NCBI RefSeq assembly: GCF_045037415.1 | Contig: NZ_CP173438.1 | DNA length: 64,000 nucleotides | Strand: one strand, 5' to 3' | Source: Escherichia coli | Lineage (GTDB): Bacteria > Pseudomonadota > Gammaproteobacteria > Enterobacterales > Enterobacteriaceae | Shown here: piece by piece, positions 218 through 46,019 of the stretch | Layout: each line of letters begins with the position of its first letter | Numbering within the stretch: the stretch's first letter is position 1 | Notes under the pieces: generated by a model | What the model was told of the DNA's origin: nothing | Database searches by the model: none | Seen by the model: the letters and a program-made list of their open reading frames with translations, nothing else | Program-made: the position numbers and the translations under genes

Positions 218-229
218 TTCGCTCACCTG

Positions 230-1030: not shown

Positions 1031-1092
1031 TGTACTTCTCCTGTTTACGTAAGACTTAAGTGTGAAAACTGAGTGATAATCAACACAATACG

Positions 1093-2064: not shown

Positions 2065-2149
2065 TTGCTACCTCCTTTATTATCGTTAACACCTCAACGT
2101 GCCAGATGTATTTTTGAATCGTCGTCCACAATCGAATCGATTCAGATAA

Positions 2150-2240
2150 GGGCTACAACCAAAAACCCCCTGCGTTTCGCGATTTATTTTAGATATCGAA
2201 AAAATTATTTTATGTGATGAAGATCCGTAATTTAACTTTC
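2150..2240 (-). promoter_or_regulatory. manX promoter/operator region: AT-rich near-palindrome TTTATTTTAGATATCGAAAAAATTATTT (about 2183-2210) resembling an Mlc/NagC operator, adjacent TGTGA motif (about 2213) as a weak CRP half-site
   Basis: Palindromic AT-rich element about 120-150 bp upstream of manX start; manX is known to be controlled by Mlc and CRP; site assignment is pattern-based only. Confidence 0.3.
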
Positions 2241-2527
2241 GATTAGCAGAAATTTCGAAAGGTAAAATATCCTTGTCACATTCGTTTGCAAAGGAAGGTA
2301 AATCTTTGCCAAATCAGAGGCGTCTCTGATATGTTTAACTCCTGTTTAACAACCATGGAGTATAGGGCAGTAGCCCGCAGTATGGATCGTCACCGACGTC
2401 ATTTCAGCATCAGGCCTTTTAACGCCTGTCTTTCTGGCACTTTATGCCGCACCTTTCGTTTGCATTTTGTCGTTACGCCTGCATTATTTCTGGCGTCGAA
2501 TAGCTATTCCTTAAGCAGGAGCTTGTC

Positions 2528-4084
2528 ATGGAATTCTTAATGGACCCCTCGATTTGGGCGGGGCTACTCACGCTTGTTGTTCTCGAAATTGTGCTGGGTA
2601 TCGATAACCTGGTCTTCATCGCCATTCTTGCTGACAAACTGCCGCCAAAACAACGCGATAAAGCGCGTTTGCTGGGATTATCACTGGCGCTGATTATGCG
2701 TCTGGGGCTGCTGTCGCTGATTTCATGGATGGTCACGCTGACCAAACCGCTATTTACCGTCATGGATTTCTCCTTCTCCGGACGCGACCTGATTATGTTG
2801 TTCGGGGGCATATTCTTGCTGTTCAAAGCAACAACCGAACTGCATGAACGGCTGGAAAACCGCGATCATGATTCCGGCCACGGTAAAGGCTACGCCAGTT
2901 TCTGGGTGGTCGTCACACAGATTGTCATCCTTGACGCCGTCTTTTCGTTGGATGCGGTAATTACTGCAGTAGGGATGGTTAACCATTTGCCGGTGATGAT
3001 GGCGGCGGTAGTGATTGCGATGGCGGTTATGCTGCTGGCATCGAAACCGCTGACGCGATTTGTTAACCAGCACCCCACGGTGGTGGTGCTCTGTCTGAGC
3101 TTCCTGTTAATGATTGGTCTGAGTCTGGTGGCAGAAGGTTTCGGTTTCCACATTCCGAAAGGTTACCTGTATGCCGCGATTGGCTTCTCGATCATCATCG
3201 AAGTGTTTAACCAGATTGCGCGTCGCAACTTTATTCGTCACCAGTCGACTTTGCCGCTGCGAGCGCGTACTGCCGATGCCATCCTGCGTTTGATGGGCGG
3301 GAAACGTCAGGCCAATGTTCAGCACGATGCCGATAACCCGATGCCGATGCCGATCCCGGAAGGTGCGTTTGCCGAAGAAGAACGTTACATGATTAACGGC
3401 GTACTGACGCTGGCGTCGCGTTCTCTGCGCGGGATCATGACGCCGCGCGGTGAAATAAGCTGGGTTGATGCTAATCTCGGGGTCGATGAAATCCGCGAGC
3501 AACTGCTCTCCTCACCGCACAGTTTGTTCCCGGTATGTCGCGGTGAACTGGATGAAATTATCGGCATCGTACGTGCTAAAGAACTGCTGGTGGCGCTGGA
3601 AGAGGGAGTTGATGTGGCGGCGATAGCTTCGGCGTCTCCGGCGATTATCGTCCCGGAAACCCTCGATCCGATCAACCTGCTGGGCGTGCTGCGTCGTGCT
3701 CGCGGGAGCTTTGTTATCGTGACCAACGAGTTTGGTGTGGTACAAGGTCTGGTCACGCCGCTGGATGTGCTGGAAGCCATTGCGGGTGAATTCCCGGACG
3801 CTGACGAAACGCCGGAAATCATTACCGACGGTGACGGCTGGCTGGTAAAAGGCGGTACAGATTTGCATGCCTTGCAGCAGGCGCTTGATGTTGAGCACCT
3901 TGCCGATGACGATGATATCGCGACGGTCGCGGGCCTCGTGATCTCGGCAAATGGTCACATTCCCCGTGTGGGCGATGTGATTGATGTAGGTCCACTGCAT
4001 ATCACCATCATTGAAGCCAATGATTATCGTGTTGATCTGGTTCGCATTGTTAAAGAGCAACCGGCGCACGATGAAGATGAGTAA
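2528..4084 (+). CDS. yoaE: TerC-family membrane protein with C-terminal CBS/CorC-type domains
   Basis: 518-aa [53 protein letters not shown]... recognised as YoaE; AGGAG 7 nt upstream of ATG. Confidence 0.95.
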
Positions 4085-4087
4085 GCG

Positions 4088-5686
4088 TTAACGTAACGGC
4101 ATAACGGGCGTGATATGTCCATTATGCCGGGCGGGCGGCGGTTGGCTGCCCGCCAGCCATTTGGGAAAATCACGTAGCGGCATCGGCTGTGCGTACAAAT
4201 ACCCTTGCAAAATATGCACGCCATGACTGCGCAAATACTTCGCCTGTTCTTGCGTTTCTACGCCCTCCGCCACCAGTTCAATATTCAGTCTTTGCCCCAG
4301 TGCGATGATGATATCGGTCACCGTCGAGTTAACCGCGTCAGAACCTATAGCTGCGGTAAATGACTTATCAATTTTCAGCACGTCAGGACGTAATGTTTCA
4401 AGCCAGGAAAATGAACTGTTGCCGGTGCCGAAGTCATCAATCGCCAGTTTGACGTTTTTACGATGCAGCTCGCGGGCAATCCGGTAATCAACATCCAGTA
4501 AGGCATCGCGTTCGGTGATTTCGAGGATCAGTTGCTGAATCGGGTGAGCGCTAAACCAGTACTGATTGAGATCTTTTATCAGCACACCACGGCGAAAATG
4601 GCTGGGTGCGACGTTAATGCCAACATGAAACTGACTACTCATTGGGAAAACATGGCGCTGACGAATGGTTTCTGCCATCACATAGCGGGTCAGTGGCACA
4701 ATTAAATGATGTTCTTCCGCGATAGGAATAAACACATCCGGTGAAATCCAGCCCTGACGCGGATTGTTCCAGCGCAGCAAAATCTCTACACCAATACATT
4801 GCTGGCTGCGCGCATTAAGCAAAGGCTGACAGAACAATTCGAACTCATGTTGCGCCAGGCCCAGATTGATCTCGCGGGAAAAGCTCATTCGGTAAGCGGT
4901 CGCCAGCCAGGCGATGTAGCCCACCAGTAAACTTAGCAGCACCGCCAGCGGTAATTGTGTTGGAAGATAGTGCCATGCCAGCGCCGTAGCCCCCGGGCCA
5001 TTAACGTTAATGGTAAAAGGAAAGCGTTGCGAAGAAACCTGATAGTTTTCATTGTTTTCAGGTTGCGGAAGGGAATCTACCAGCCCATTACCATAGAGCA
5101 AATGCCGACTGTCCACCGTCAGGCTGGCGCTACTGATTTGCGGCAGTTGTGGTTCAAGGAGCATTGCCGTCAGTAAGTCGATGTTAATCATCTCCATGAC
5201 CCCAGCATTGCTACTGCCCGCTGCAGGCGTCCATTGAATCAAAACCGGACTGCCTTTTATCAGGGCACGGTCGGTCGTCAGTCGTAAAAGTGGTTGCGGT
5301 GCAGGAAGTTCAGCCAGAATGTCCACGACGGGCACATTGCGATAACCAAAAATGCTGGAGCAATAAAGTGTGCCGTCTTGCACCAGGCCAATGGATCGCA
5401 CAGTTTGGAGTTTTGCCGCCTGTTTACGTAATGGCAAATGGGCGACAGAGCAGGGCAGACCAATCAGCGGAAGCAAGACTTCGCTACCTGCCTGTAGGGG
5501 AAGCAGTACTTTATCTAATTCCTCTACAGCGTGATTGGCGAATTGTACTACCCGTTGTTGATTTAAGTTACGCTGTGAAATAAATCGCACGCTCAGGGTC
5601 GAAGCGAGCGTAACGAGTGCGCAAATCGTACAAACAATCATTCGATTACGGCGATAGGTTTTAATGATCCGTTGTGCTTTTTGCAT
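4088..5686 (-). CDS. pdeD: c-di-GMP phosphodiesterase (EAL domain, CSS-type membrane sensor)
   Basis: ORF 4088-5716; K-12-length product (532 aa) begins at MQKAQRIIKTYRRNRMIVCTICALV...; C-terminal EAL domain; convergent with yoaE (3 bp apart). Confidence 0.9.
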   Translation of the reverse strand: MQKAQRIIKTYRRNRMIVCTICALVTLASTLSVRFISQRNLNQQRVVQFANHAVEELDKVLLPLQAGSEVLLPLIGLPCSVAHLPLRKQAAKLQTVRSIGLVQDGTLYCSSIFGYRNVPVVDILAELPAPQPLLRLTTDRALIKGSPVLIQWTPAAGSSNAGVMEMINIDLLTAMLLEPQLPQISSASLTVDSRHLLYGNGLVDSLPQPENNENYQVSSQRFPFTINVNGPGATALAWHYLPTQLPLAVLLSLLVGYIAWLATAYRMSFSREINLGLAQHEFELFCQPLLNARSQQCIGVEILLRWNNPRQGWISPDVFIPIAEEHHLIVPLTRYVMAETIRQRHVFPMSSQFHVGINVAPSHFRRGVLIKDLNQYWFSAHPIQQLILEITERDALLDVDYRIARELHRKNVKLAIDDFGTGNSSFSWLETLRPDVLKIDKSFTAAIGSDAVNSTVTDIIIALGQRLNIELVAEGVETQEQAKYLRSHGVHILQGYLYAQPMPLRDFPKWLAGSQPPPARHNGHITPVMPLR

Positions 5687-7364: not shown

Positions 7365-7943
7365 TCAGGGTTTCACACCAATTTGCAGCGCCAGCTCACG
7401 AATTATGCCTGCGGTCATTCCCCATACAAAATACTGTTCGTACCAGGACAGCCATACCCGATGTGAATCGCCACGGCGGTAGATATCTAAAGGATGATAA
7501 CGACCCAGATGTAATGCCTGGGCGAGCGGCATTTCAAAGACGGCGGAGACTTCACCTTCACTGGCGCGATACGGCAGATCGGGCGGGATAATGCCGACCA
7601 CTGGGGTTACCTGGTAGCCAGTGACGCTATCGACGGGCGGCAGCACGCCGATAACCTCAACGGCGGAAGGCGGTATAGCGACCTCTTCTTCAGCTTCGCG
7701 CAGCGCAGCGGCGATAACTGATGCGTCCGTGTCATCGACTGCGCCTCCAGGGAATGCCACTTGTCCAGCGTGTTTACGCAGATGAATCGAACGCTGAGTC
7801 AGCAACAACCCCGGTTGCGGTCGGCGGACGATGGGGATTAACACGGCAGCCTGACGATGATTTAAGGTTTCCCGGTTAATTTGCGGGCGCAAAAGTTGAA
7901 AGCGCGATAAAAAATCATCAAGCGTCAGGCTACGGTATTCCAC
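7365..7943 (-). CDS. nudL: Nudix CoA pyrophosphatase
   Basis: 192-aa [30 protein letters not shown]... recognised as NudL (YeaB); 3 bp downstream of pabB. Confidence 0.93.
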
Positions 7944-7946
7944 GTC

Positions 7947-9308
7947 TTACTTCTCCAGTTGGCGTAATATCTTATTAACTTTATCAAAAGTTTCCTGATA
8001 TTCCGCTTCTTCCTGGCTATCGGCAACAATTCCACCGCCCGCAGAGCAGTAAATTTGTCCGTTAATGGTAGTCAGCGTGCGGATAGTAATGCTGGTGTCC
8101 ATGTTGCCGCAAAAGCTCAAATAGCCAATGCTGCCGCACCAGGCATTGCGTCGCTGCGGTTCCAGTTCGTCGATAATTTCCATAGCCCGTACTTTCGGAG
8201 CCCCGGTTATTGAGCCACCAGGAAAAGCCGCGCGCAGCAGATCGCTGGCGTGTAACTGTTCTGGTAGTTGCGCCGTTATGGTGCTGACCAGATGATGCAC
8301 GGCAGGGAAGGGTTCCACCACGAACAGCTCTGGTACTTTTACCGAACCTGCTACGGCAACACGACCGATATCATTACGCATTAAATCGACAATCATCAGA
8401 TTTTCGGCACGATCTTTCGTTGAGTTCGCCAGTTTTTCTGCTTGTTTGCTATCTTCCAGAAGATCGGGCAGGCGTGGTAGCGTGCCTTTAATCGGGCGGG
8501 TCTGGATTTCACCATTATCACAAAGAATAAACCGCTCTGGTGAAAGGCTTAAAATAGCAGCCTGTTCAAGACGTAAAAAAGCGCTAAACGGCGCGCGGTT
8601 GGCCTGATTAAGCTGAAGGAATGCCTGCCATTCATCGCCAGAATAGGTCGCATGAAAACGCTGGGCGAGATTCACCTGATAGCAATCACCGCTGTGCAGA
8701 TATTCCTGTACCTGGCGAAATTTTTCGCCGTACTGTTCGCGGGTCATATTGGATTGCCAGTCGGAAGTGAGTGTGAAATCTTCCTGCGGGGAGAATTGCT
8801 GGCTTTCCAGCCAGGCCCGACGGGCATTGACATCATTATGACTCAGCAAAGAAACTGTTTGACGCTGGTGGTCGACAACCAGCGCCCAGTCGTAGATACC
8901 CACTGCCATATCCGGCAGAACGATATCTTGTTCCGCAATTTCTGGCAGTGACTCAAAACGGCGGCCCAGATCGTAGCCAAACAACCCCAGCGCGCCGCCC
9001 TGAAATGGCAAATCTTCGTTATGCGCTGGGCGAATGTCTGCACGATCCAGCACCTGCTGGAGCACCTGTAGCGGGTCATCAGTGGTCGTTGTGCGTTTTT
9101 CGCTTTCACTAACAACGGTTTCTTTACCGAAAGTGGTTAAAGTGCAAATTGGCTCGGCGACCACAATATCAAAGCGGCTATACGGATGATCGGCATAGCC
9201 GGAGTGTAAAAGCATCGCCCACGGCAGGTGGCTTAAGTGGGAGAAATAAAATTCAGCGGCGTCCTGACGCCAGGGTAAAGTAATCACAGCGGGAGATAAC
9301 GTCTTCAT
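7947..9308 (-). CDS. pabB: aminodeoxychorismate synthase component 1
   Basis: 453-aa ORF MKTLSPAVITLPWRQDAAEFYFSHLSHLPWAMLLHSGYADHPYSRFDIVV... recognised as PabB. Confidence 0.96.
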   Translation of the reverse strand: MKTLSPAVITLPWRQDAAEFYFSHLSHLPWAMLLHSGYADHPYSRFDIVVAEPICTLTTFGKETVVSESEKRTTTTDDPLQVLQQVLDRADIRPAHNEDLPFQGGALGLFGYDLGRRFESLPEIAEQDIVLPDMAVGIYDWALVVDHQRQTVSLLSHNDVNARRAWLESQQFSPQEDFTLTSDWQSNMTREQYGEKFRQVQEYLHSGDCYQVNLAQRFHATYSGDEWQAFLQLNQANRAPFSAFLRLEQAAILSLSPERFILCDNGEIQTRPIKGTLPRLPDLLEDSKQAEKLANSTKDRAENLMIVDLMRNDIGRVAVAGSVKVPELFVVEPFPAVHHLVSTITAQLPEQLHASDLLRAAFPGGSITGAPKVRAMEIIDELEPQRRNAWCGSIGYLSFCGNMDTSITIRTLTTINGQIYCSAGGGIVADSQEEAEYQETFDKVNKILRQLEK

Positions 9309-14366: not shown

Positions 14367-16052
14367 TTGAAGAAGGTTTGGCTTAACCGTTATCCCGCGG
14401 ACGTTCCGACGGAGATCAACCCTGACCGTTATCAATCTCTGGTAGATATGTTTGAGCAGTCGGTCGCACGCTATGCCGATCAACCCGCGTTTGTGAATAT
14501 GGGGGAGGTGATGACCTTCCGCAAACTGGAAGAACGCAGTCGCGCGTTTGCCGCTTATTTGCAACAAGGGTTGGGGCTGAAGAAAGGCGATCGCGTTGCG
14601 TTGATGATGCCTAACTTATTGCAATATCCGGTGGCGCTGTTTGGCATTTTGCGTGCCGGGATGATCGTCGTAAACGTTAACCCGTTGTATACCCCGCGTG
14701 AGCTTGAGCATCAGCTTAACGATAGCGGCGCATCGGCGATTGTTATCGTGTCTAACTTTGCCCACACTCTGGAAAAAGTGGTTGATAAAACCGCCGTTCA
14801 GCACGTTATTCTGACCCGTATGGGCGATCAGCTATCTACGGCAAAAGGCACGGTAGTCAATTTCGTTGTTAAATACATCAAGCGTCTGGTGCCGAAATAC
14901 CATCTGCCAGATGCCATTTCATTTCGTAGCGCCCTGCACAACGGCTACCGGATGCAGTACGTCAAACCAGAATTGGTGCCGGAAGATTTAGCTTTCCTGC
15001 AATACACCGGCGGCACCACTGGTGTGGCGAAAGGCGCGATGCTGACTCACCGCAATATGCTGGCGAACCTGGAACAGGTTAACGCGACCTATGGTCCGCT
15101 GTTGCATCCGGGCAAAGAGCTGGTGGTGACGGCGCTGCCGCTGTATCACATTTTTGCACTGACCATTAACTGCCTGCTGTTTATCGAACTGGGAGGGCAG
15201 AACCTGCTTATCACTAACCCGCGCGATATTCCAGGGCTGGTAAAAGAGTTAGCGAAATATCCGTTTACCGCTATCACTGGCGTTAACACCTTGTTCAATG
15301 CGTTGCTGAACAATAAAGAGTTCCAGCAGCTGGATTTCTCCAGTCTGCATCTTTCCGCAGGCGGTGGGATGCCTGTTCAGCAAGTGGTTGCAGAACGTTG
15401 GGTTAAACTGACTGGACAGTATCTGCTGGAAGGTTATGGCCTGACCGAGTGCGCGCCGCTGGTCAGCGTTAACCCGTATGATATTGATTATCATAGTGGT
15501 AGCATCGGTTTGCCGGTGCCGTCGACGGAAGCCAAACTGGTGGATGATGATGATAATGAAGTACCACCTGGTCAACCAGGTGAGCTTTGTGTCAAAGGAC
15601 CGCAGGTGATGCTGGGTTACTGGCAGCGTCCGGATGCTACCGATGAAATCATCAAAAATGGCTGGTTACACACCGGCGACATCGCGGTGATGGATGAAGA
15701 AGGATTCCTGCGCATTGTCGATCGTAAAAAAGATATGATTCTGGTTTCCGGTTTTAACGTCTATCCCAACGAGATTGAAGATGTCGTCATGCAGCATCCT
15801 GGCGTACAGGAAGTCGCGGCTGTTGGCGTACCTTCCGGCTCCAGTGGTGAAGCGGTGAAAATCTTCGTAGTGAAAAAAGATCCATCGCTTACCGAAGAGT
15901 CACTGGTGACCTTTTGCCGCCGTCAGCTCACGGGCTACAAAGTACCGAAGCTGGTGGAGTTTCGTGATGAGTTACCGAAATCTAACGTCGGAAAAATTTT
16001 GCGACGAGAATTACGTGACGAAGCGCGCGGCAAAGTGGACAATAAAGCCTGA
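14367..16052 (+). CDS. fadD: long-chain-fatty-acid--CoA ligase
   Basis: ORF 14301-16052; K-12-length product (561 aa) starts at TTG 14367 ([24 protein letters not shown]...) after AGAGGTGAAG; AMP-binding signature [14 protein letters not shown]. Confidence 0.95.
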
Positions 16053-16071
16053 GCGTTAAGTCAGTCGTCAG

Positions 16072-16097
16072 ACGCCGGTTAATCCGGCGTTTTTTTT
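16072..16097 (+). terminator. rho-independent terminator of fadD
   Basis: ACGCCGG-TTAAT-CCGGCGT stem-loop followed by TTTTTTTT, 20 bp after the fadD stop. Confidence 0.7.
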
Positions 16098-36852: not shown

Positions 36853-36859
36853 GTGGTTT

Positions 36860-36891
36860 ATCCCCTTTTTGCCGCGGTTATAAAGGGGATA
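36860..36891 (+). terminator. hairpin after yeaC stop (ATCCCCTTTT / AAAAGGGGAT, 12-nt loop)
   Basis: 10-bp inverted repeat 8 bp after yeaC stop; no clear U-tract. Confidence 0.3.
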
Positions 36892-37221
36892 GCCAACAAT
36901 GACCCCACGACTCATCTCAATTATCTCGCCCCGACCTGGCTAAGTCCCAGTCCGATCTCTTGCAGTCGCGTTCACACCTGAATGACTTCTCCTGAACTTA
37001 AGTCTCAGGCCTATTTGGCCGGGAATCCCTCTCGAATTTGCTCTTTTTGCGTCCCGCCTTCCATCAACCTGTAACAACCCCAGCCATTTTCTGCGTAATT
37101 GTGATCTAAGTTGTAAAACGCAGATCATTATCTGTGTTTTACAGATTTAATGTTGACCTCAAAAATCATGTGGGTAAGTATGATGACCATCTAAGCAAAA
37201 CAAAACACAGAGGATGACGCA

Positions 37222-38298
37222 ATGAAAGCACTGGCTCGGTTTGGCAAGGCTTTTGGTGGCTACAAGATGATTGATGTCCCACAACCCATTTGTGGCCCGG
37301 AAGATGTCGTGATTGAAATTAAAGCCGCGGCAATCTGCGGCGCAGACATGAAGCACTACAATGTCGATAGCGGTTCGGATGAGTTTAACTCTATCCGCGG
37401 CCATGAGTTCGCAGGTTGTATTGCGCAGGTTGGTGAAAAAGTCAAAGACTGGAAAGTGGGGCAACGCGTCGTGTCGGATAACAGCGGTCACGTTTGCGGC
37501 GTTTGCCCGGCCTGTGAACAAGGTGATTTTCTGTGTTGTACAGAAAAAGTAAACCTTGGTCTGGATAACAATACCTGGGGCGGTGGTTTTTCCAAATATT
37601 GTCTTGTTCCTGGTGAAATTCTCAAAATTCATCGTCATGCGTTGTGGGAAATCCCTGATGGTGTTGATTATGAGGACGCAGCCGTACTTGACCCTATCTG
37701 TAATGCCTATAAATCCATCGCGCAGCAATCGAAATTCCTTCCAGGTCAGGATGTGGTCGTCATCGGCACTGGCCCACTCGGGCTGTTCTCCGTACAAATG
37801 GCGCGGATTATGGGGGCGGTAAATATCGTCGTCGTTGGTCTGCAAGAAGATGTAACGGTCCGCTTCCCGGTTGCAAAAGAACTGGGTGCGACGGCAGTAG
37901 TAAATGGTTCTACCGAAGATGTGGTGGCACGCTGCCAGCAAATTTGTGGCAAAGACAATCTGGGGCTGGTGATTGAATGCTCCGGTGCCAATATCGCATT
38001 GAAACAAGCCATCGAAATGCTCCGCCCGAATGGGGAAGTAGTACGCGTTGGAATGGGCTTCAAACCTCTTGATTTCTCGATTAATGACATTACCGCCTGG
38101 AACAAAAGCATCATTGGGCATATGGCCTATGACTCCACTTCATGGCGTAACGCTATCAGGCTATTAGCCAGCGGCGCTATCAAAGTCAAACCGATGATCA
38201 CGCATCGTATCGGCCTGTCGCAATGGCGCGAAGGGTTTGATGCGATGGTCGATAAAACTGCAATCAAAGTGATCATGACTTACGACTTTGATGAATAA
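37222..38298 (+). CDS. ydjL: zinc-dependent medium-chain alcohol/sugar dehydrogenase
   Basis: 358-aa ORF MKALARFGKAFGGYKMIDVPQPICGPEDVVIEIKAAAICGADMKHYN...; GHEFAG zinc motif and GTGPLG Rossmann motif. Confidence 0.94.
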   Translation: MKALARFGKAFGGYKMIDVPQPICGPEDVVIEIKAAAICGADMKHYNVDSGSDEFNSIRGHEFAGCIAQVGEKVKDWKVGQRVVSDNSGHVCGVCPACEQGDFLCCTEKVNLGLDNNTWGGGFSKYCLVPGEILKIHRHALWEIPDGVDYEDAAVLDPICNAYKSIAQQSKFLPGQDVVVIGTGPLGLFSVQMARIMGAVNIVVVGLQEDVTVRFPVAKELGATAVVNGSTEDVVARCQQICGKDNLGLVIECSGANIALKQAIEMLRPNGEVVRVGMGFKPLDFSINDITAWNKSIIGHMAYDSTSWRNAIRLLASGAIKVKPMITHRIGLSQWREGFDAMVDKTAIKVIMTYDFDE

Positions 38299-38324
38299 CT
38301 ACTCTCCTGAAGGAACGTTATCGC

Positions 38325-39704
38325 ATGGAACAGATAACAAAACCGCATTGTGGTGCACGGCTGGATCGCTTACCGGATTGCCGCTGGCATTCGTCGATGT
38401 TTGCCATCGTCGCGTTTGGCCTGCTTGTCTGCTGGAGTAATGCCGTTGGTGGCTTGATCCTCGCGCAGCTGAAAGCGTTGGGCTGGACAGATAATTCCAC
38501 CACTGCCACATTCTCAGCAATCACGACCGCCGGAATGTTTCTCGGTGCGCTGGTGGGCGGCATCATCGGTGACAAAACCGGTCGCAGAAATGCGTTTATC
38601 CTCTATGAGGCCATTCATATTGCCTCGATGGTTGTCGGTGCTTTCTCACCGAATATGGATTTCCTTATTGCCTGCCGTTTTGTGATGGGCGTTGGGCTGG
38701 GAGCTTTACTGGTTACACTGTTTGCTGGTTTCACCGAATATATGCCCGGAAGAAATCGCGGAACGTGGTCCAGTCGGGTTTCCTTTATTGGTAACTGGTC
38801 ATATCCGCTCTGTTCATTGATTGCGATGGGACTCACGCCGCTGATTAGTGCAGAGTGGAACTGGCGGGTACAACTGCTTATCCCTGCAATATTGTCACTT
38901 ATCGCTACGGCGCTGGCCTGGCGCTACTTTCCTGAATCCCCGCGCTGGCTGGAATCGCGCGGACGTTATCAGGAAGCCGAGAAAGTCATGCGGAGTATAG
39001 AAGAAGGCGTCATACGCCAGACGGGTAAACCTTTGCCGCCTGTGGTTATTGCTGATGACGGTAAAGCACCACAAGCGGTGCCGTATTCAGCCTTACTGAC
39101 AGGAGTATTACTGAAACGCGTGATATTAGGCTCTTGTGTGCTGATTGCCATGAACGTTGTGCAGTACACACTAATTAACTGGTTGCCAACGATATTCATG
39201 ACCCAGGGAATTAATTTAAAAGACTCGATTGTTTTAAATACCATGAGTATGTTTGGCGCGCCATTTGGTATTTTTATTGCCATGCTGGTGATGGATAAAA
39301 TTCCGCGTAAAACAATGGGTGTGGGGCTATTAATCCTGATTGCGGTGCTCGGATATATCTATTCACTGCAAACCAGTATGTTGCTCATAACGCTGATTGG
39401 TTTCTTCCTGATTACTTTCGTCTATATGTACGTTTGCTATGCCTCGGCAGTGTATGTCCCTGAGATCTGGCCGACAGAGGCCAAACTCCGTGGCTCCGGT
39501 CTGGCGAATGCGGTAGGGCGAATCAGTGGTATTGCCGCACCTTATGCCGTTGCAGTGCTGCTCAGTAGTTATGGCGTAACGGGAGTCTTTATTCTTCTGG
39601 GGGCTGTTTCAATTATTGTCGCAATTGCTATCGCCACCATTGGAATTGAAACCAAAGGTGTCTCCGTTGAAAGTTTAAGTATTGATGCAGTAGCCAATAA
39701 ATAA
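38325..39704 (+). CDS. ydjK: MFS sugar-family transporter
   Basis: 459-aa ORF MEQITKPHCGARLDRLPDCRWHSSMFAIVAFGLLVCWSNAVGG...; 12-TM profile. Confidence 0.93.
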   Translation: MEQITKPHCGARLDRLPDCRWHSSMFAIVAFGLLVCWSNAVGGLILAQLKALGWTDNSTTATFSAITTAGMFLGALVGGIIGDKTGRRNAFILYEAIHIASMVVGAFSPNMDFLIACRFVMGVGLGALLVTLFAGFTEYMPGRNRGTWSSRVSFIGNWSYPLCSLIAMGLTPLISAEWNWRVQLLIPAILSLIATALAWRYFPESPRWLESRGRYQEAEKVMRSIEEGVIRQTGKPLPPVVIADDGKAPQAVPYSALLTGVLLKRVILGSCVLIAMNVVQYTLINWLPTIFMTQGINLKDSIVLNTMSMFGAPFGIFIAMLVMDKIPRKTMGVGLLILIAVLGYIYSLQTSMLLITLIGFFLITFVYMYVCYASAVYVPEIWPTEAKLRGSGLANAVGRISGIAAPYAVAVLLSSYGVTGVFILLGAVSIIVAIAIATIGIETKGVSVESLSIDAVANK

Positions 39705-39720
39705 TACTGGTGGATTCAAA

Positions 39721-40764
39721 ATGAAAAATTCAAAAGCAATGTTGCAGGTGCCGGGCACAATGAAAATTATTTCAGCAGAAATACCTGTACCTAAAGAAGA
39801 TGAAGTTTTGATTAAAGTGGAATATGTCGGTATTTGTGGTTCAGATGTACATGGTTTTGAATCAGGCCCGTTTATTCCTCCTAAAGACCCAAATCAAGAA
39901 ATTGGCCTGGGTCATGAATGCGCCGGGACGGTTGTGGCTGTGGGAAGCCGCGTGCGCAAATTTAAACCGGGGGATCGGGTAAATATCGAACCTGGCGTTC
40001 CTTGCGGTCACTGTCGTTACTGTCTGGAAGGCAAATATAACATCTGCCCGGACGTTGATTTTATGGCGACACAACCCAACTACCGCGGCGCATTAACGCA
40101 CTATCTGTGTCATCCGGAGAGCTTTACTTACAAACTGCCAGACAATATGGACACGATGGAAGGGGCGCTGGTGGAGCCTGCCGCAGTCGGGATGCATGCC
40201 GCGATGCTGGCAGATGTTAAACCGGGTAAGAAGATAATTATTCTGGGAGCGGGTTGTATTGGTTTGATGACGTTGCAAGCGTGCAAATGCCTGGGAGCAA
40301 CGGAAATTGCCGTCGTTGATGTGCTGGAAAAACGTCTGACAATGGCGGAACAGCTCGGCGCGACAGTGGTTATTAACGGCGCAAAAGAAGACACTATTGC
40401 ACGCTGTCAGCAATTTACCGAAGACATGGGCGCAGATATTGTTTTTGAAACAGCGGGTTCTGCGGTCACCGTTAAACAGGCACCTTATCTGGTCATGCGC
40501 GGCGGTAAAATTATGATTGTTGGTACTGTACCCGGCGATTCGGCAATCAATTTCCTCAAAATCAATCGCGAAGTCACTATCCAGACGGTATTCCGCTATG
40601 CCAATCGTTATCCGGTCACGATTGAAGCTATTTCTTCAGGGCGATTCGATGTGAAATCGATGGTGACGCATATTTACGATTATCGGGATGTACAACAGGC
40701 ATTTGAAGAGTCAGTTAACAACAAACGCGACATTATTAAAGGCGTTATTAAAATTAGCGATTAA
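39721..40764 (+). CDS. ydjJ: zinc-dependent alcohol/sugar dehydrogenase
   Basis: 347-aa ORF MKNSKAMLQVPGTMKIISAEIPVPKEDEVLIKVEYVGICGSDVHGFESG...; GHECAG and GAGCIG motifs. Confidence 0.94.
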   Translation: MKNSKAMLQVPGTMKIISAEIPVPKEDEVLIKVEYVGICGSDVHGFESGPFIPPKDPNQEIGLGHECAGTVVAVGSRVRKFKPGDRVNIEPGVPCGHCRYCLEGKYNICPDVDFMATQPNYRGALTHYLCHPESFTYKLPDNMDTMEGALVEPAAVGMHAAMLADVKPGKKIIILGAGCIGLMTLQACKCLGATEIAVVDVLEKRLTMAEQLGATVVINGAKEDTIARCQQFTEDMGADIVFETAGSAVTVKQAPYLVMRGGKIMIVGTVPGDSAINFLKINREVTIQTVFRYANRYPVTIEAISSGRFDVKSMVTHIYDYRDVQQAFEESVNNKRDIIKGVIKISD

Positions 40765-40784
40765 TTAATACGGGAGAACAGAAC

Positions 40785-41621
40785 ATGCTCGCAGATATCA
40801 GATATTGGGAAAACGATGCCACAAATAAACATTATGCAATTGCCCATTTTAACGTATGGAATGCAGAAATGTTGATGGGCGTTATCGACGCAGCCGAAGA
40901 AGCGAAATCACCGGTTATTATTTCTTTTGGCACAGGTTTTGTCGGCAACACCTCATTTGAAGATTTCTCTCACATGATGGTATCAATGGCACAAAAAGCA
41001 ACGGTGCCGGTAATAACTCATTGGGATCATGGTCGGAGTATGGAGATTATTCATAACGCCTGGACTCATGGTATGAATTCATTAATGCGTGATGCTTCTG
41101 CATTTGATTTCGAAGAAAATATTCGTTTAACCAAAGAGGCTGTTGATTTCTTCCATCCGCTGGGTATTCCGGTAGAGGCGGAATTAGGGCATGTCGGTAA
41201 TGAAACCGTTTATGAGGAAGCGCTGGCAGGCTATCACTATACCGATCCTGACCAGGCGGCTGAATTTGTTGAACGTACGGGCTGTGACTCATTGGCTGTC
41301 GCCATCGGCAACCAGCATGGGGTTTATACGTCAGAGCCACAATTGAACTTTGAGGTCGTCAAACGCGTACGCGATGCTGTTTCTGTTCCGCTGGTTTTGC
41401 ATGGCGCATCAGGGATCAGTGATGCCGACATTAAAACTGCAATTTCGTTGGGTATTGCGAAAATCAACATTCATACGGAGCTCTGTCAGGCCGCAATGGT
41501 AGCAGTGAAAGAAAACCAGGATCAGCCTTTCCTGCATTTAGAACGTGAAGTGCGTAAAGCTATAAAAGAACGGGCATTGGATAAAATTAAACTGTTCGGT
41601 TCTGATGGCAAAGCGGAATAA
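40785..41621 (+). CDS. ydjI: class II (metal-dependent) ketose-bisphosphate aldolase family protein
   Basis: 278-aa ORF MLADIRYWENDATNKHYAIAHFNVWNAEMLMGVIDAAEEAKSPVIISF... Confidence 0.93.
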   Translation: MLADIRYWENDATNKHYAIAHFNVWNAEMLMGVIDAAEEAKSPVIISFGTGFVGNTSFEDFSHMMVSMAQKATVPVITHWDHGRSMEIIHNAWTHGMNSLMRDASAFDFEENIRLTKEAVDFFHPLGIPVEAELGHVGNETVYEEALAGYHYTDPDQAAEFVERTGCDSLAVAIGNQHGVYTSEPQLNFEVVKRVRDAVSVPLVLHGASGISDADIKTAISLGIAKINIHTELCQAAMVAVKENQDQPFLHLEREVRKAIKERALDKIKLFGSDGKAE

Positions 41622-41625
41622 TAAT

Positions 41626-42573
41626 ATGGATAATCTCGACGTTATTTGTATAGGTGCCGCTATTGTTGATATTCCATTGCAACCGGTCAGTAAAAATATC
41701 TTTGATGTGGATTCTTATCCTCTTGAAAGAATCGCAATGACCACCGGGGGTGATGCAATAAATGAAGCAACAATTATTTCTCGTCTGGGCCATCGCACAG
41801 CATTAATGAGTCGTATTGGTAAAGATGCCGCAGGGCAATTTATTCTCGACCATTGCCGCAAAGAGAATATTGATATTCAAAGCCTGAAGCAGGACGTCAG
41901 CATAGATACCTCTATTAACGTTGGACTGGTGACGGAGGATGGCGAGCGGACCTTTGTCACAAACCGTAACGGCAGTCTGTGGAAATTGAATATTGACGAT
42001 GTTGATTTTGCGCGGTTTTCTCAGGCGAAATTATTATCACTGGCCAGTATTTTCAACAGTCCTCTATTGGATGGTCGAGCGCTAACAGAAATTTTTACGC
42101 AAGCTAAAACCCGGCAGATGATTATCTGTGCCGATATGATCAAACCGCGGTTGAATGAAACGCTGAATGATATTTGCGAAGCATTGAGTTATGTCGATTA
42201 TCTGTTTCCTAATTTTGCCGAGGCAAAATTACTCACCGGGAAAGAGACACTGGATGAAATTGCTGACTGCTTTCTTGCGTGCGGCGTAAAAACGGTGGTG
42301 ATTAAAACGGGTAAAGACGGCTGCTTTATCAAGCGTGGTGACATGACGATGAAGGTGCCGGCGGTCGCAGGAATAACCGCTATCGACACCATTGGTGCGG
42401 GCGATAACTTTGCTTCAGGTTTTATTGCAGCACTGTTAGAAGGCAAAAATCTGCGAGAATGCGCACGCTTTGCCAATGCAACGGCGGCTATCTCGGTTCT
42501 AAGCATCGGCGCCACCACCGGTGTAAAAAACAGAAAGCTGGTCGAACAATTGCTGGAAGAATACGAAGGATAA
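41626..42573 (+). CDS. ydjH: PfkB-family sugar kinase
   Basis: ORF 41605-42573; K-12-length product (315 aa) begins MDNLDVICIGAAIVDIPLQP...; C-terminal GAGDNF motif. Confidence 0.92.
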   Translation: MDNLDVICIGAAIVDIPLQPVSKNIFDVDSYPLERIAMTTGGDAINEATIISRLGHRTALMSRIGKDAAGQFILDHCRKENIDIQSLKQDVSIDTSINVGLVTEDGERTFVTNRNGSLWKLNIDDVDFARFSQAKLLSLASIFNSPLLDGRALTEIFTQAKTRQMIICADMIKPRLNETLNDICEALSYVDYLFPNFAEAKLLTGKETLDEIADCFLACGVKTVVIKTGKDGCFIKRGDMTMKVPAVAGITAIDTIGAGDNFASGFIAALLEGKNLRECARFANATAAISVLSIGATTGVKNRKLVEQLLEEYEG

Positions 42574-42582
42574 TGAAGGCAA

Positions 42583-43563
42583 ATGAAAAAGATACCTTTA
42601 GGCACAGCGGATATAACGCTTTCGCGAATGGGGTTGGGTACATGGGCTATTGGCGGCGGTCCTGCATGGAATGGCGATCTCGATCGACAAATATGCATTG
42701 ATACGATTCTTGAAGCCCATCGTTGCGGCATTAACCTGATTGATACTGCGCCAGGATATAACTTTGGCAATAGTGAAGTTATCGTTGGTCAGGCGTTAAA
42801 AAAACTGCCCCGTGAACAGGTTGTAGTAGAAACCAAATGCGGCATTGTCTGGGAACGAAAAGGAAGTTTATTCAACAAAGTTGGCGATCGGCAGTTGTAT
42901 AAAAACCTTTCTCCGGAATCTATCCGCGAAGAGGTAGAAGCCAGCTTGCAACGTCTGGGTATTGATTACATCGATATCTACATGACGCACTGGCAGTCGG
43001 TGCCGCCATTTTTTACGCCGATAGCTGAAACTGTTGCAGTGCTTAATGCGTTAAAGGCCGAAGGGAAAATTCGCGCTATAGGCGCTGCTAACGTCGATGC
43101 TGACCATATCCGCGAGTATCTGCAACATGGTGAACTGGATATTATTCAGGCGAAATACAGTATTCTCGACCGGGCGATGGAAAACGAACTGCTGCCGCTA
43201 TGTCGTGATAATGGCATTGTGGTTCAGGTTTATTCCCCGCTAGAGCAGGGATTGTTGACCGGCACCATCACGCGTGATTACGTTCCGGGCGGCGCTCGGG
43301 CAAATAAAGTCTGGTTCCAGCGTGAAAACATGCTGAAAGTGATTGATATGCTTGAACAGTGGCAGCCACTCTGTGCTCGTTATCAGTGCACAATTCCCAC
43401 TCTGGCACTGGCGTGGATATTAAAACAGAGTGATTTAATCTCCATTCTTAGTGGGGCTACTGCGCCGGAACAGGTACGTGAAAATGTCGCGGCACTGAAT
43501 ATCAACTTATCGGATGCAGACGCAACATTGATGAGGGAAATGGCAGAGGCCCTGGAGCGTTAA
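42583..43563 (+). CDS. ydjG: aldo-keto reductase (NADH-dependent)
   Basis: 326-aa ORF MKKIPLGTADITLSRMGLGTWAIGGGPAWNGDLDRQICIDTILEAHR... Confidence 0.93.
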   Translation: MKKIPLGTADITLSRMGLGTWAIGGGPAWNGDLDRQICIDTILEAHRCGINLIDTAPGYNFGNSEVIVGQALKKLPREQVVVETKCGIVWERKGSLFNKVGDRQLYKNLSPESIREEVEASLQRLGIDYIDIYMTHWQSVPPFFTPIAETVAVLNALKAEGKIRAIGAANVDADHIREYLQHGELDIIQAKYSILDRAMENELLPLCRDNGIVVQVYSPLEQGLLTGTITRDYVPGGARANKVWFQRENMLKVIDMLEQWQPLCARYQCTIPTLALAWILKQSDLISILSGATAPEQVRENVAALNINLSDADATLMREMAEALER

Positions 43564-43699
43564 ATACTCAACACGATTCACCTCTGTTTCTGTGAAAACT
43601 GTGATGAAAATCTGTGATTCAAACAGGTTATTTTGAAAGTAAACATCGGTTATGCGATAATTGCGCTAATGTGATGTAAAAAGATACAGGGGTGTAATC

Positions 43700-44458
43700 G
43701 TGGCGGCAAAAGACAGGATTCAGGCAATTAAGCAAATGGTTGCCAACGATAAAAAGGTGACAGTCTCAAATTTGAGTGGGATTTTTCAGGTAACCGAAGA
43801 AACCATTCGCCGCGATCTTGAGAAGTTGGAAGATGAAGGCTTTTTGACCAGAACCTATGGTGGTGCTGTTTTAAATACAGCGATGTTGACGGAGAATATC
43901 CATTTTTATAAGCGCGCTTCATCGTTTTATGAAGAGAAGCAGCTTATTGCACGCAAGGCACTACCCTTTGTCGACAATAAAACCACCATGGCAGCCGATT
44001 CCAGTAGTACCGTAATGGAATTGCTCAAATTGTTACAGGACCGTAGTGACCTGACGTTGCTAACCAACTCGGCGGAAGCGATTCATGTTCTGGCTCAGTC
44101 AGAAATTAAAGTCGTTTCAACGGGTGGGGAACTAAACAAAAATACACTTTCACTGCAAGGAAGAATTACTAAAGAGATCATCAGCCGCTACCATGTCGAT
44201 ATCATGGTAATGAGTTGTAAAGGTCTTGATATTAACAGCGGCGCGCTGGACTCTAATGAAGCGGAAGCTGAAATCAAAAAGACAATGATCCGTCAGGCGA
44301 CAGAAGTTGCGTTATTGGTTGATCACTCTAAGTTTGATCGCAAAGCTTTTGTCCAGTTAGCTGACTTTAGTCATATTAATTACATAATAACTGATAAATC
44401 ACCGGGTGCAGAGTGGATAGCATTTTGCAAAGACAATAATATCCAGCTGGTGTGGTAA
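43700..44458 (+). CDS. ydjF: DeoR-family transcriptional regulator
   Basis: 252-aa ORF, GTG start; MAAKDRIQAIKQMVANDKKVTVSNLSGIFQVTEETIRRDLEKLEDEGFLTRTYGGAV...; N-terminal HTH, C-terminal sugar-binding domain. Confidence 0.93.
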   Translation: MAAKDRIQAIKQMVANDKKVTVSNLSGIFQVTEETIRRDLEKLEDEGFLTRTYGGAVLNTAMLTENIHFYKRASSFYEEKQLIARKALPFVDNKTTMAADSSSTVMELLKLLQDRSDLTLLTNSAEAIHVLAQSEIKVVSTGGELNKNTLSLQGRITKEIISRYHVDIMVMSCKGLDINSGALDSNEAEAEIKKTMIRQATEVALLVDHSKFDRKAFVQLADFSHINYIITDKSPGAEWIAFCKDNNIQLVW

Positions 44459-44575
44459 TTTAAGCACACATTGTCAATATTATTTGTTCCTGCGCCTGGA
44501 AATAAAATGATGATAAAGATGCGGCAAGTGAATTTGCCGCAATTGCTACCTTTTTTAGCAAATCCGAGGCACCCA

Positions 44576-45934
44576 ATGGAACAATATGATCAAATTGGCG
44601 CAAGACTGGACCGCTTGCCTTTGGCCCGGTTTCATTATCGTATATTTGGTATAATAAGCTTTAGTCTGTTATTAACGGGGTTTTTGAGTTACTCCGGTAA
44701 TGTCGTCTTAGCAAAGCTGGTAAGCAATGGATGGTCAAATAATTTCCTCAATGCCGCCTTTACCTCGGCATTAATGTTTGGTTATTTCATCGGCTCTCTT
44801 ACCGGTGGGTTTATTGGTGACTACTTTGGGCGGCGCAGGGCGTTTCGCATAAATCTTCTCATCGTCGGTATTGCGGCAACAGGGGCCGCTTTTGTCCCTG
44901 ATATGTACTGGCTCATCTTCTTTCGCTTCCTGATGGGAACAGGAATGGGGGCGCTGATTATGGTTGGCTATGCCTCATTTACGGAGTTTATCCCCGCGAC
45001 GGTGCGTGGAAAATGGTCCGCGCGGCTCTCATTTGTTGGAAACTGGTCGCCCATGCTGTCTGCGGCGATAGGCGTGGTGGTTATCGCTTTTTTTAGTTGG
45101 CGGATAATGTTTCTGCTGGGCGGTATTGGCATACTGTTAGCCTGGTTTCTCTCAGGTAAATACTTTATTGAGTCGCCACGATGGTTGGCAGGGAAAGGGC
45201 GAATCGCAGGTGCAGAAAGCCAACTTCGTGAAGTAGAGCAGCAAATTGAAAGAGAGAAGAGTATTCGTTTACCCCCGCTTACTTTGAACCAGAGCAACAG
45301 CAAGGTTAAGGTAATCAAGGGTACCTTCTGGCTCCTGTTTAAAGGGGAAATGTTACGACGTACATTAGTCGCGATTACTGTTTTAATTGCAATGAACATT
45401 TCGCTTTATACCATCACCGTATGGATGCCGACCATATTTGTTAACTCCGGCATTGATGTCGATAAATCAATATTAATGACCGCTGTTATTATGATTGGCG
45501 CTCCGGTAGGGATATTTATTGCGGCATTAATTATTGATCATTTCCCTCGTCGATTATTTGGTTCCGCCTTACTTATTATTATTGCCGTGTTAGGCTATAT
45601 CTATTCAATTCAGACAACAGAGTGGGCGATTTTAATCTATGGCCTGGTGATGATCTTCTTTTTATACATGTATGTTTGCTTCGCGTCGGCGGTTTATATC
45701 CCGGAACTTTGGCCAACGCATTTACGCCTGCGTGGTTCGGGTTTCGTTAATGCCGTAGGACGGATCGTCGCAGTCTTCACGCCCTATGGCGTTGCGGCAT
45801 TATTAACACATTATGGGTCGATCACGGTGTTTATGGTGCTTGGTGTCATGTTAGTGCTCTGTGCGCTGGTTCTCTCCATTTTTGGCATCGAAACGCGGAA
45901 GGTGTCGCTGGAAGAGATTTCTGAGGTGAATTAA
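44576..45934 (+). CDS. ydjE: MFS transporter
   Basis: ORF 44471-45934; K-12-length product (452 aa) begins MEQYDQIGARLDRLPLARFHYRIFGIISF...; paralogous to ydjK (same N-terminal motif). Confidence 0.9.
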   Translation: MEQYDQIGARLDRLPLARFHYRIFGIISFSLLLTGFLSYSGNVVLAKLVSNGWSNNFLNAAFTSALMFGYFIGSLTGGFIGDYFGRRRAFRINLLIVGIAATGAAFVPDMYWLIFFRFLMGTGMGALIMVGYASFTEFIPATVRGKWSARLSFVGNWSPMLSAAIGVVVIAFFSWRIMFLLGGIGILLAWFLSGKYFIESPRWLAGKGRIAGAESQLREVEQQIEREKSIRLPPLTLNQSNSKVKVIKGTFWLLFKGEMLRRTLVAITVLIAMNISLYTITVWMPTIFVNSGIDVDKSILMTAVIMIGAPVGIFIAALIIDHFPRRLFGSALLIIIAVLGYIYSIQTTEWAILIYGLVMIFFLYMYVCFASAVYIPELWPTHLRLRGSGFVNAVGRIVAVFTPYGVAALLTHYGSITVFMVLGVMLVLCALVLSIFGIETRKVSLEEISEVN

Positions 45935-45984: not shown

Positions 45985-46019
45985 CTGGCCTACAATGCCA
46001 GTACAGAATTGTAGGCCAG
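45985..46019. terminator. 12-bp perfect inverted repeat between convergent ydjE and pncA (CTGGCCTACAAT / ATTGTAGGCCAG)
   Basis: Stable hairpin in the 92-bp convergent gap; flanked by T-rich (upstream) and A-rich (downstream) stretches on the plus strand. Confidence 0.4.

Follow-up and report, generated by a model that had tools for sequence, protein, structure and literature searches.

The ydj genes and their products

The ydj cluster of Escherichia coli occupies positions 37222-45934 of the window, which is the whole 64-kb stretch of DNA analysed here (contig NZ_CP173438.1). Eight plus-strand genes, all running in one direction, were located in this interval from the listing of open reading frames (ORFs) and from the RefSeq records of SK1144, a 100%-identical genome, and of MG1655. 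The cluster is flanked by msrB-yeaC on the plus strand upstream and by pncA-ansA on the minus strand downstream. The genes, with product lengths in amino acids (aa), are as follows.

37222-38298, plus strand: ydjL, zinc medium-chain dehydrogenase/reductase (MDR), 358 aa
38325-39704, plus strand: ydjK, major facilitator superfamily (MFS) transporter, 459 aa
39721-40764, plus strand: ydjJ, zinc MDR dehydrogenase, 347 aa
40785-41621, plus strand: ydjI, class II (metal-dependent) dihydroxyacetone phosphate (DHAP) aldolase, 278 aa
41626-42573, plus strand: ydjH, PfkB-family sugar kinase, 315 aa
42583-43563, plus strand: ydjG, NADH-dependent aldo-keto reductase, 326 aa
43700-44458, plus strand: ydjF, DeoR/GlpR-family regulator, 252 aa, GTG start
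44576-45934, plus strand: ydjE, second MFS transporter and ydjK paralogue, 452 aa

The initial annotation had described eight one-direction genes, ydjLKJIHGFE, within these outer limits, and both the start and the end are exact. The eight protein families that it named are each backed by Pfam and NCBIfam, including the DeoR regulator YdjF. Its spacers of 9-27 bp needed correction. The genes ydjLKJIHG are separated by 26, 16, 20, 4, and 9 bp, and the range is wrong at two of the seven junctions, namely ydjG-ydjF (136 bp) and ydjF-ydjE (117 bp, measured to the annotated, conserved ydjE start). The region is the already-catalogued ydj locus (b1769-b1776) of EcoCyc and RefSeq, and finding it is a recognition of known content, not a discovery. 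It shares with the K-12 cluster the same eight genes, their order, and their neighbours (yeaC, msrB; pncA, ansA), and all eight products are 98-100% identical to those of MG1655 (tblastn). The sole difference is the strain background, in that the segment 36500-46500 has 97.9% DNA identity to MG1655 and 100% to several other strains. The description of the region as conserved K-12 content obscures that within the species the cluster is a presence/absence island; the strain itself is not K-12. What is added here is a predicted operator and regulon, the cross-phylum spread with its transporter swaps, and the exact edges of the insertion/deletion.

YdjI carries PF01116 over its full length (297 bits), passes TIGR00167 (325 bits vs a cut-off of 215.6), and matches the 'YdjI aldolase' of PDB 6OFU chain A over residues 1-278 (E=2e-187). 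YdjH carries PF00294 (245.6 bits) and matches PDB 3H49/3IN1 over residues 1-315 (E=1.5e-204). A longer ydjH ORF from 41605 was dropped, as the crystallised protein fits the 315-aa product. YdjH stays under the NCBIfam cut-offs for IolC (141 vs 300 bits), ribokinase (132 vs 300), and KdgK (86 vs 400). YdjG is a member of the NCBIfam equivalog NF049922, NADH-dependent methylglyoxal reductase (622.6 bits vs 550), and this activity is discussed as shown in PMC6561318. YdjL and YdjJ are 28% identical to each other and are generic zinc MDR members with ADH_N and ADH_zinc_N domains (Pfam). Their best scores are below the NCBIfam equivalog cut-offs for TDH (217 vs 380 bits), IdnD (176 vs 469), and IolM (197 vs 450). 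The closest solved structure to YdjL is L-threonine 3-dehydrogenase, and YdjL lies under all of the NCBIfam equivalog cut-offs.

YdjK and YdjE, which are 44% identical, have MFS_1 / Sugar_tr domains (Pfam). Neither reaches an NCBIfam subfamily cut-off; the top model is the aromatic acid:H+ symporter family, with 147 and 158 bits vs 418. A longer ydjE ORF (from TTG 44471 or ATG 44507) was dropped, as the spacers in other genera are not frame-preserving. The Shine-Dalgarno sequence GAGGCA before ATG 44576 is conserved and supports the annotated start. YdjF consists of an N-terminal HTH_DeoR domain (62.6 bits) and a C-terminal DeoRC sensor domain (167.3 bits), and no solved structural relative was found for it at E<=1e-20. 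It is listed among the uncharacterised DeoR-family factors (PMC4797297). By analogy with its family, YdjF would be a repressor with a sugar-phosphate effector.

Predicted YdjF operators and promoters

A search for DeoR-type repeats in 36853-37221 and 43564-43699 had been suggested, and palindromic boxes are present in both intervals. They conform to a 15-bp palindrome, TCTGTG-N3-CACAGA, which is very probably the YdjF operator as judged from sequence. The regulatory features are listed below, with the strand where one applies.

36853-37221, plus strand: yeaC-ydjL intergenic region; the proximal ~125 bp (about 37097-37221) is conserved in enterics (22 aligned) and contains the ydjL control elements, and the distal part is lineage-specific
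37100-37107, plus strand: TGTGATCT block, near-invariant in enterics; possible, weak CRP half-site in the 22-mer 37097-37118
37110-37124: O1, weak predicted YdjF operator GTTGTAAAACGCAGA, 11/15 to the consensus, 21 bp centre-to-centre from O2
37131-37145: O2, best predicted YdjF operator TCTGTGTTTTACAGA, one mismatch to TCTGTGAAACACAGA, ending 7 nt upstream of the -35
37153-37181, plus strand: predicted ydjL promoter, -35 TTGACC (37153-37158), 17 nt, -10 AAGTAT (37176-37181)
37530-37544: internal candidate operator TCTGTGTTGTACAGA in ydjL, two mismatches, codons F-L-C-C-T-E, about +350 from the predicted start
43589-43597: ydjF half-site TCTGTGAAA, conserved in enterics
43611-43625: ydjF degenerate full site TCTGTGATTCAAACA, 12/15 to the consensus, ending 7 nt upstream of the -35 at 43633
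43633-43661, plus strand: ydjF promoter TTGAAA, 17 nt, GATAAT, the best promoter-like site in the region (10/12 with TG), conserved in enterics

When the strict consensus is allowed up to three mismatches, the 64-kb window holds three matches, all of which are within the ydj cluster. O1 and O2 together form a 34-nt inverted repeat (37111-37144). Of the 20 enteric loci containing the ydjL upstream region, 17 have O2 at -89 to -92 relative to the ATG. The TTGAC at 37153 is invariant in 22 enteric sequences. A promoter proposed by a consensus scan, TTTACA (37138)-17-AAAAAT, was dropped because it is unconserved, in contrast to the invariant TTGACC. Before ydjF, 23 enteric sequences retain the block CCTCTGTTTCTGTGTAAAA...AAATCTGTGATTCAGACA, and the TTGAAA/GATAAT hexamers appear as a constitutive sigma-70 promoter in a list from genomic SELEX (systematic evolution of ligands by exponential enrichment; PMC3946193). 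The 7-nt offset from box to -35 is equal at the two E. coli promoters (O2 of ydjL, and ydjF).

The motif recurs far outside the enterics. A scan with YdjI, restricted to one genome per species, yielded 80 loci, on which a tblastn synteny map was built. In Firmicutes and Atopobiaceae, TCTGTGAAACACAGA or TCTTTGAAACAAAGA lies just upstream of the ydjL TTGACA, frequently as two or three copies spaced by about 21 bp, with a further half-site between the -35 and the -10 of the ydjL promoter. The Firmicute TTGACA stands at the same place relative to the operator as in the enterics. The half-sites co-vary symmetrically (TCTGTG/CACAGA vs TCTTTG/CAAAGA), as is expected for a DNA site bound by a dimer. 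The density of the degenerate motif, with up to two mismatches and counted in the 250 bp upstream of a gene across the 80 loci (1.53 Mb in total), is given below.

Upstream of ydjL, 80 loci: 3.9/kb
Upstream of ydjF, 80 loci: 1.9/kb
Elsewhere in the 1.53 Mb: 0.078/kb
Non-coding DNA upstream of ydjL, non-enteric loci: 5.2/kb
Other intergenic DNA, non-enteric loci: 0.57/kb

The motif is thus enriched 25-50 times upstream of ydjL and ydjF. Most of the leftover intergenic matches precede ydjF, the gene of an SDF-family symporter, a second ydj-like gene set, or ABC (ATP-binding cassette) transporter genes. E. coli YdjF and most of the Firmicute homologues compared share one and the same recognition helix, VTEETIRRDL. 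YdjF would accordingly be predicted to regulate ydjLKJIHG, itself, and, in Lachnospiraceae, the SDF transporter. No predicted YdjF site was found at ydjE, and the literature search found no description of a TCTGTG-N3-CACAGA site at ydj.

The predicted architecture resembles the DeoR/GlpR regulons (deo, glp, aga, gat, ula), with which YdjF shares the HTH_DeoR and DeoRC domains. DeoR and GlpR use distant or internal operators. The predicted ydj sites are likewise in tandem with a phasing of about 21 bp, and a further site lies about 400 bp away inside the first gene. The difference is that TCTGTG-N3-CACAGA, as predicted YdjF operator, is specific to ydj loci. Within the internal ydjL site, four of the six eligible codons are nucleotide-invariant in 19 enteric species, against a background of 8.2%. 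The changes that do occur there (CTG>CTT, ACA>AAA) remain within the G/T and A/C variants of the motif. This internal site is absent in Firmicutes. Before the ydjL Shine-Dalgarno sequence, positions 37200-37212 read AAACACAGA, which matches the right half and the spacer of the operator exactly and is conserved in other enterics with the sequence AACACAAAGGA; this stretch may be an additional half-site or just part of the ribosome-binding region.

The 34-nt repeat could also be read as an RNA leader hairpin or attenuator that pairs with the ribosome-binding region 37202-37217. A terminator scan marks a 15-pair stem with ATTTAATGTT after it, the arm 37125-37140 and the segment 37202-37217 show 88% complementarity, and a fusion of the ydjL 5' untranslated region and ORF shows Rho-dependent termination (bioRxiv 2020.07.18.207399). 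Against this stands the position of the repeat upstream of the sole conserved -35 (TTGAC), so that it should stay untranscribed. The outer arms pair less well in other enterics (10/14) and both protein-type boxes are retained, the Firmicute 15-mer precedes TTGACA and recurs at the promoters of ydjF and the SDF gene, and the complementarity to the ribosome-binding region is accounted for by the CACAGA half-site there. Rfam at gathering thresholds gives no match in the cluster. The RNA reading was rejected as very improbable, because the repeat is upstream of the conserved -35 and is conserved as two protein boxes.

It is also quite unlikely that YdjF is an activator, like FucR, and not a repressor. 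The centres of O1 and O2 fall near -71 and -50 in E. coli, the -10 is poor, and YdjF reaches 137 bits on the model of the activator FucR, short of the cut-off. In Firmicutes, however, the near-consensus hexamers and the half-site between -35 and -10 (e.g. TTGACTGAAACACAGA) fit occlusion. The 21-bp tandem phasing with a distal internal site resembles the repression loops of DeoR and GlpR, and most members of the DeoR family are repressors relieved by sugar phosphates.

Involvement of CRP has been proposed as well. Activation of ydjLKJIHG by CRP was predicted (PMC8085971), and a CRP SELEX peak is recorded at ydjF. The 22-mer 37097-37118 agrees with the CRP consensus at 7 of 10 core positions, a level reached 214 times in the window (3.3/kb). 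Its left half is conserved. The site was kept as a weak candidate only.

The ydjF-ydjE spacer contains a possible RNA element.

44520-44541: hairpin TGCGGCAA-N6-TTGCCGCA, ydjF-ydjE spacer, possibly the ydjF 3' end

This hairpin shows compensatory changes in other genera, e.g. CGGTAAA/TTTACCG and CGACAG/CTGTCG, and a conserved AATGATGAT block precedes it. It is possibly the ydjF 3' end, an element of ydjE control, or an antisense terminator. The sole Rfam match at gathering level in the 64-kb window is a full-length sroD small RNA (RF00370, 115 bits) at 16011-16096 on the plus strand.

Distribution of the cluster within and beyond E. coli

The segment 36500-46500 was matched in 5425 of 5426 complete E. 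coli genomes. At least 80% of it is held by 4262 of the 5426 (78.5%), and about one fifth (~21%) match 8% of the query only, with yeaC then followed directly by pncA. Huddleston and Raushel are said to have found the cluster in about 80% of E. coli genomes. In the one deletion genome that was aligned (L083, 1853-2013), homology ends at the yeaC stop codon (~36851) and returns at ~45963, and about 90 bp of unrelated filler replaces the missing ydj segment. Because homology breaks at these two points, the 369-bp upstream spacer and all eight genes, including ydjE, are one presence/absence unit of about 9.1 kb. Its right edge is marked by a second hairpin.

45985-46019: hairpin CTGGCCTACAAT...ATTGTAGGCCAG, 12-bp stem, between the convergent ydjE and pncA

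The prevalence of ydj by phylogroup is 29.9% in B1 and about 97-100% in most others (PMC9602453). Insertion sequence (IS) elements (ISVsa5/IS4-like, the IS3 family in O157:H7, and IS1A) break the cluster in several strains. One strain (match H42) has an IS1-flanked partial deletion of the cluster.

The clean deletion in ~21% of complete genomes and the IS interruptions, including those of O157:H7, could indicate that the E. coli locus is a decaying remnant devoid of current function. The GC content of the unit (42-48%) is also slightly below that of its flanks (about 50%). The eight ORFs are nevertheless intact and 98-100% identical to K-12, and the regulatory boxes are conserved across genera. 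The same yeaC-pncA slot is used in Citrobacter, the Klebsiella oxytoca group, Raoultella, and Yokenella. In addition, the ydjL promoter is off in culture and is turned on during transit through the mouse gut (PMC6561318). Decay of the locus is accordingly considered most improbable.

Among the 80 loci, the full order L-K-J-I-H-G-F-E is found in Escherichia, Citrobacter, the Klebsiella oxytoca group, Raoultella, Yokenella, Intestinirhabdus, Budvicia, Enterobacillus, and Symbiopectobacterium. All of these genera use the yeaC-pncA slot except Budvicia, Enterobacillus, and Symbiopectobacterium, where the synteny map shows neither yeaC nor pncA adjoining the cluster. The core L-(K)-J-I-H-G-F is found in many Lachnospiraceae, Clostridium, Veillonella, Megamonas, Anaerococcus, Erysipelotrichaceae, Oscillospiraceae, Atopobiaceae, and a Synergistaceae genome, and in Gilliamella it is present in rearranged form. 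Because the L-(K)-J-I-H-G-F order is kept across the 80 loci, the six enzymes plus the regulator behave as one functional unit. Identity to E. coli across phyla is 73-86% for YdjI and 69-87% for YdjL (tblastn). YdjK is about 50-58% identical in most Firmicute loci and 64-75% in a few, and YdjK and YdjF of Lachnospiraceae are about 52-55% identical to those of E. coli. The high cross-phylum identity suggests horizontal spread among gut bacteria together with strong constraint on YdjI and YdjL.

In some genomes YdjK has given way to carboxylate-type transporters. ydjE is limited to Enterobacterales, and distant MFS relatives lie beside ydjL in Veillonella and C. puniceum. Clustering of neighbouring ORFs and Pfam scans of the loci revealed accessory genes. 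A symporter gene of the SDF family (sodium:dicarboxylate, PF00375) is found in 30 non-enteric loci and takes the ydjK slot in two of them (L062, L064), and ABC genes of the branched-chain-amino-acid type are found in 12 other loci. These three unrelated transporter types are all typical of carboxylates or amino acids. An acidic substrate fits this pattern, because such carriers replace or accompany YdjK. A gene of the ribulose-phosphate 3-epimerase (RPE) family is present in 30 non-enteric clusters, mostly between ydjL and ydjK (e.g. L024, 6304-6999), and it was absent from every enteric ydj cluster examined.

Other neighbours vary between loci. Genes for PxpA/B/C-like (5-oxoprolinase-type) proteins, a class I/II aminotransferase, an RraA-like protein, and a D-2-hydroxyacid dehydrogenase (the last in seven loci) recur within 10 kb in varying arrangement. 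The PxpABC-like/aminotransferase set is found in L046, L049, L050, L051, L055, L061, L064, L068, L074, L078, and L079, most of which have no ydjK. The Lachnospiraceae locus L024 carries at 107-4790, immediately before its main cluster, a second, divergent partial set (YdjH-like, 41%; aldo-keto reductase, 32%; YdjJ-like, 50%; another MDR), and two operator-motif matches lie near it at 4799 and 4877. In Klebsiella michiganensis (L071, ~7500-8900), a ydjK-sized gap between ydjL and ydjJ gives no ydjK match at 60% coverage or more, which raises the possibility of a disrupted gene. In Citrobacter, the Klebsiella oxytoca group, and Raoultella, the yeaC-ydjL spacer extends to about 2 kb and holds GH18 chitinase-like and HNH-endonuclease genes on the opposite strand (L010, 4446-6164; also L008-L014, L016, L018, and L019). 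Escherichia has neither gene.

The proposed pathway and its substrate

Biochemical work on the cluster has centred on YdjH and YdjI. The K-12 RefSeq product names are L-glycero-L-galacto-octuluronate kinase for YdjH and L-glycero-L-galacto-octuluronate-1-phosphate aldolase for YdjI. Huddleston et al. in 2019 reportedly found in their kinetic details an in-vitro preference of both enzymes for acids of 7-9 carbons. As cited in passages of two later papers (PMC9602453, PMC11194214), Huddleston and Raushel 2019 found that YdjH and YdjI favour long-chain monosaccharides with a carboxylate end, and the same passages call the functions of the operon 'only partially determined'. The initial annotation had likewise pointed to higher-carbon sugar acids on in-vitro grounds, in agreement with the RefSeq names. 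It had also called the physiological substrate unsettled, and the literature search indeed found no substrate with genetic support for the cluster. Its 'complete pathway' stands as far as gene roles and order are concerned; completeness itself is an extrapolation, with biochemistry limited to YdjH, YdjI, and YdjG. Two further reports were set aside. The 'ydjJ' sorbitol dehydrogenase of Paenibacillus (PMC7229006) is a namesake from another context and is uninformative for E. coli, and a silver-nanoparticle paper mentions ydjF solely for a synonymous polymorphism.

Taken together, the ydj locus is likely to be an inducible catabolic module for a gut-available polyhydroxy compound bearing a carboxylate, controlled by YdjF via the palindrome. 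YdjK would import the acidic polyol or ketose, with YdjE as a putative second carrier specific to enterics and SDF or ABC carriers in the place of YdjK elsewhere. YdjL and/or YdjJ would then introduce the 2-keto group by oxidation of a secondary alcohol, the product being a 2-ketose that bears a distal acid. YdjH would phosphorylate the C1 hydroxyl, as it does in vitro in the hands of others with 2-ketoses carrying a distal carboxylate. YdjI would cut C3-C4 to yield DHAP and an aldehyde-acid, a reaction reported by others in vitro for the 8-carbon octuluronate-1-phosphate and presumed for the natural substrate. YdjG, with its in-vitro activity as a methylglyoxal reductase only, may reduce the resulting aldehyde-acid with NADH. 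From sequence features, ydjLKJIHG would be a single transcription unit read from the promoter 37153-37181, and YdjF would be made from its own sigma-70 promoter at 43633-43661. YdjF would bind O1/O2, its own promoter, and probably the internal ydjL site. It would hold the operon off until a phosphorylated intermediate builds up; the most likely means is cooperative binding at several sites or DNA looping, as known for DeoR and GlpR. CRP may assist, although the sequence evidence is weak.

Several points weigh against this proposal. In a passage of PMC9602453, the best in-vitro substrate is stated to have 'no natural abundance', and no physiological substrate, inducer, or growth phenotype has been established for the cluster. 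The steps assigned to YdjL, YdjJ, YdjK, and YdjE are presumed. Metabolomics of ydjE knockout and overexpression points to export of acetophenone and 3-phenyllactate, not to sugar uptake. The E. coli cluster is without the RPE-family epimerase of the 30 non-enteric clusters, and the pathways may differ. Loss of the locus from about one fifth of E. coli genomes, and its interruption by IS insertions in others, show that it is dispensable. At the regulatory level, O1 and the ydjF site are degenerate, the ydjL transcription start is a prediction, and operators upstream of the -35 together with the weak -10 AAGTAT would also fit an activator, so that the sign of regulation is likewise predicted only.

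A close chemical parallel is the lower pathway of myo-inositol, in which IolC and IolJ similarly phosphorylate a keto-sugar acid beside the keto group and split it with a class II aldolase into DHAP and an aldehyde-acid. Among the NCBIfam models YdjH scores highest on IolC, although at 141 bits vs 300 the two are not equivalogs. No homologues of IolB, IolD, IolE, or IolG are linked to ydj, and the in-vitro substrates of the ydj enzymes are acids of 7-9 carbons. The tagatose/galactitol aldolases GatY and KbaY share the Pfam family of YdjI, AgaY (1GVF) is a structural relative, and YdjI scores 240-245 bits on tagatose-bisphosphate aldolase models. It nevertheless stays below their cut-offs (383-384 bits), ydj has no phosphotransferase system components and no GatZ/KbaZ partner, and YdjI acts on a ketose 1-phosphate bearing a distal acid and not on a bisphosphate.

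IolC/IolJ-type enzymes act on a six-carbon keto-acid. The natural substrate of ydj could be a six-carbon acid too (an aldonate oxidised to a 5-keto-aldonate, a hexuluronate), which YdjH and YdjI would convert to DHAP and tartronate semialdehyde and YdjG to glycerate. Besides the IolC score of YdjH and the IolJ-like fold of YdjI, this is consistent with the resemblance, below cut-offs, of YdjJ and YdjL to L-idonate 5-dehydrogenase and sorbitol-type MDRs, and with the D-2-hydroxyacid dehydrogenase of seven loci. Furthermore, the Blautia locus L046 has a glycerate kinase gene and a xylose-isomerase-like TIM-barrel gene directly upstream of ydjL. The preference for acids of 7-9 carbons reported in vitro counts against a six-carbon substrate, and the glycerate kinase linkage was set aside as a substrate clue because it occurs in only 1 of the 80 loci. 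A six-carbon acid is therefore regarded as unlikely.

The methylglyoxal reductase activity of YdjG (PMC6561318) and the over-representation of ydj genes among lactic-acid-resistant meat-plant isolates (PMC9602453) could instead mark a locus mainly for aldehyde (methylglyoxal) detoxification or stress. This has very little likelihood. The set of kinase, DHAP aldolase, paired polyol-type dehydrogenases, transporter, and DeoR regulator, in an order fixed across phyla, is the signature of an operon for carbohydrate catabolism, and the link to acid resistance is confounded by phylogroup, given the low prevalence in B1 (PMC9602453).

The catabolic module may also be viewed more broadly, as a horizontally shared cross-phylum gut pathway under YdjF operator control everywhere, with a substrate that may be an amino-acid-conjugated or lactam-bearing polyol. 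The hint comes from those Firmicute loci that link PxpABC-like, aminotransferase, RraA-like, and amino-acid-type ABC genes to ydj. This extension is tentative, and in its full form it is somewhat doubtful.

The ydj cluster is among the better-defined orphan pathways of the E. coli 'y-ome', in which structures and in-vitro chemistry are in hand and the natural substrate, inducer, and regulon are missing. Many gut Firmicutes and Actinobacteria retain its seven-gene core with unusually high identity. The predicted regulon adds the SDF symporter and the RPE-type epimerase in Firmicutes and offers a concrete YdjF site for testing. The ydjL promoter, active in the mouse gut, provides a rationale for a reporter-based search for the inducer, and if the cross-phylum gut pathway holds true, the operator/promoter pair would be a ready biosensor for the inducer in gut contents. 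The operator and regulon, the cross-phylum spread, and the indel edges are thus testable leads for de-orphaning the ydj pathway.

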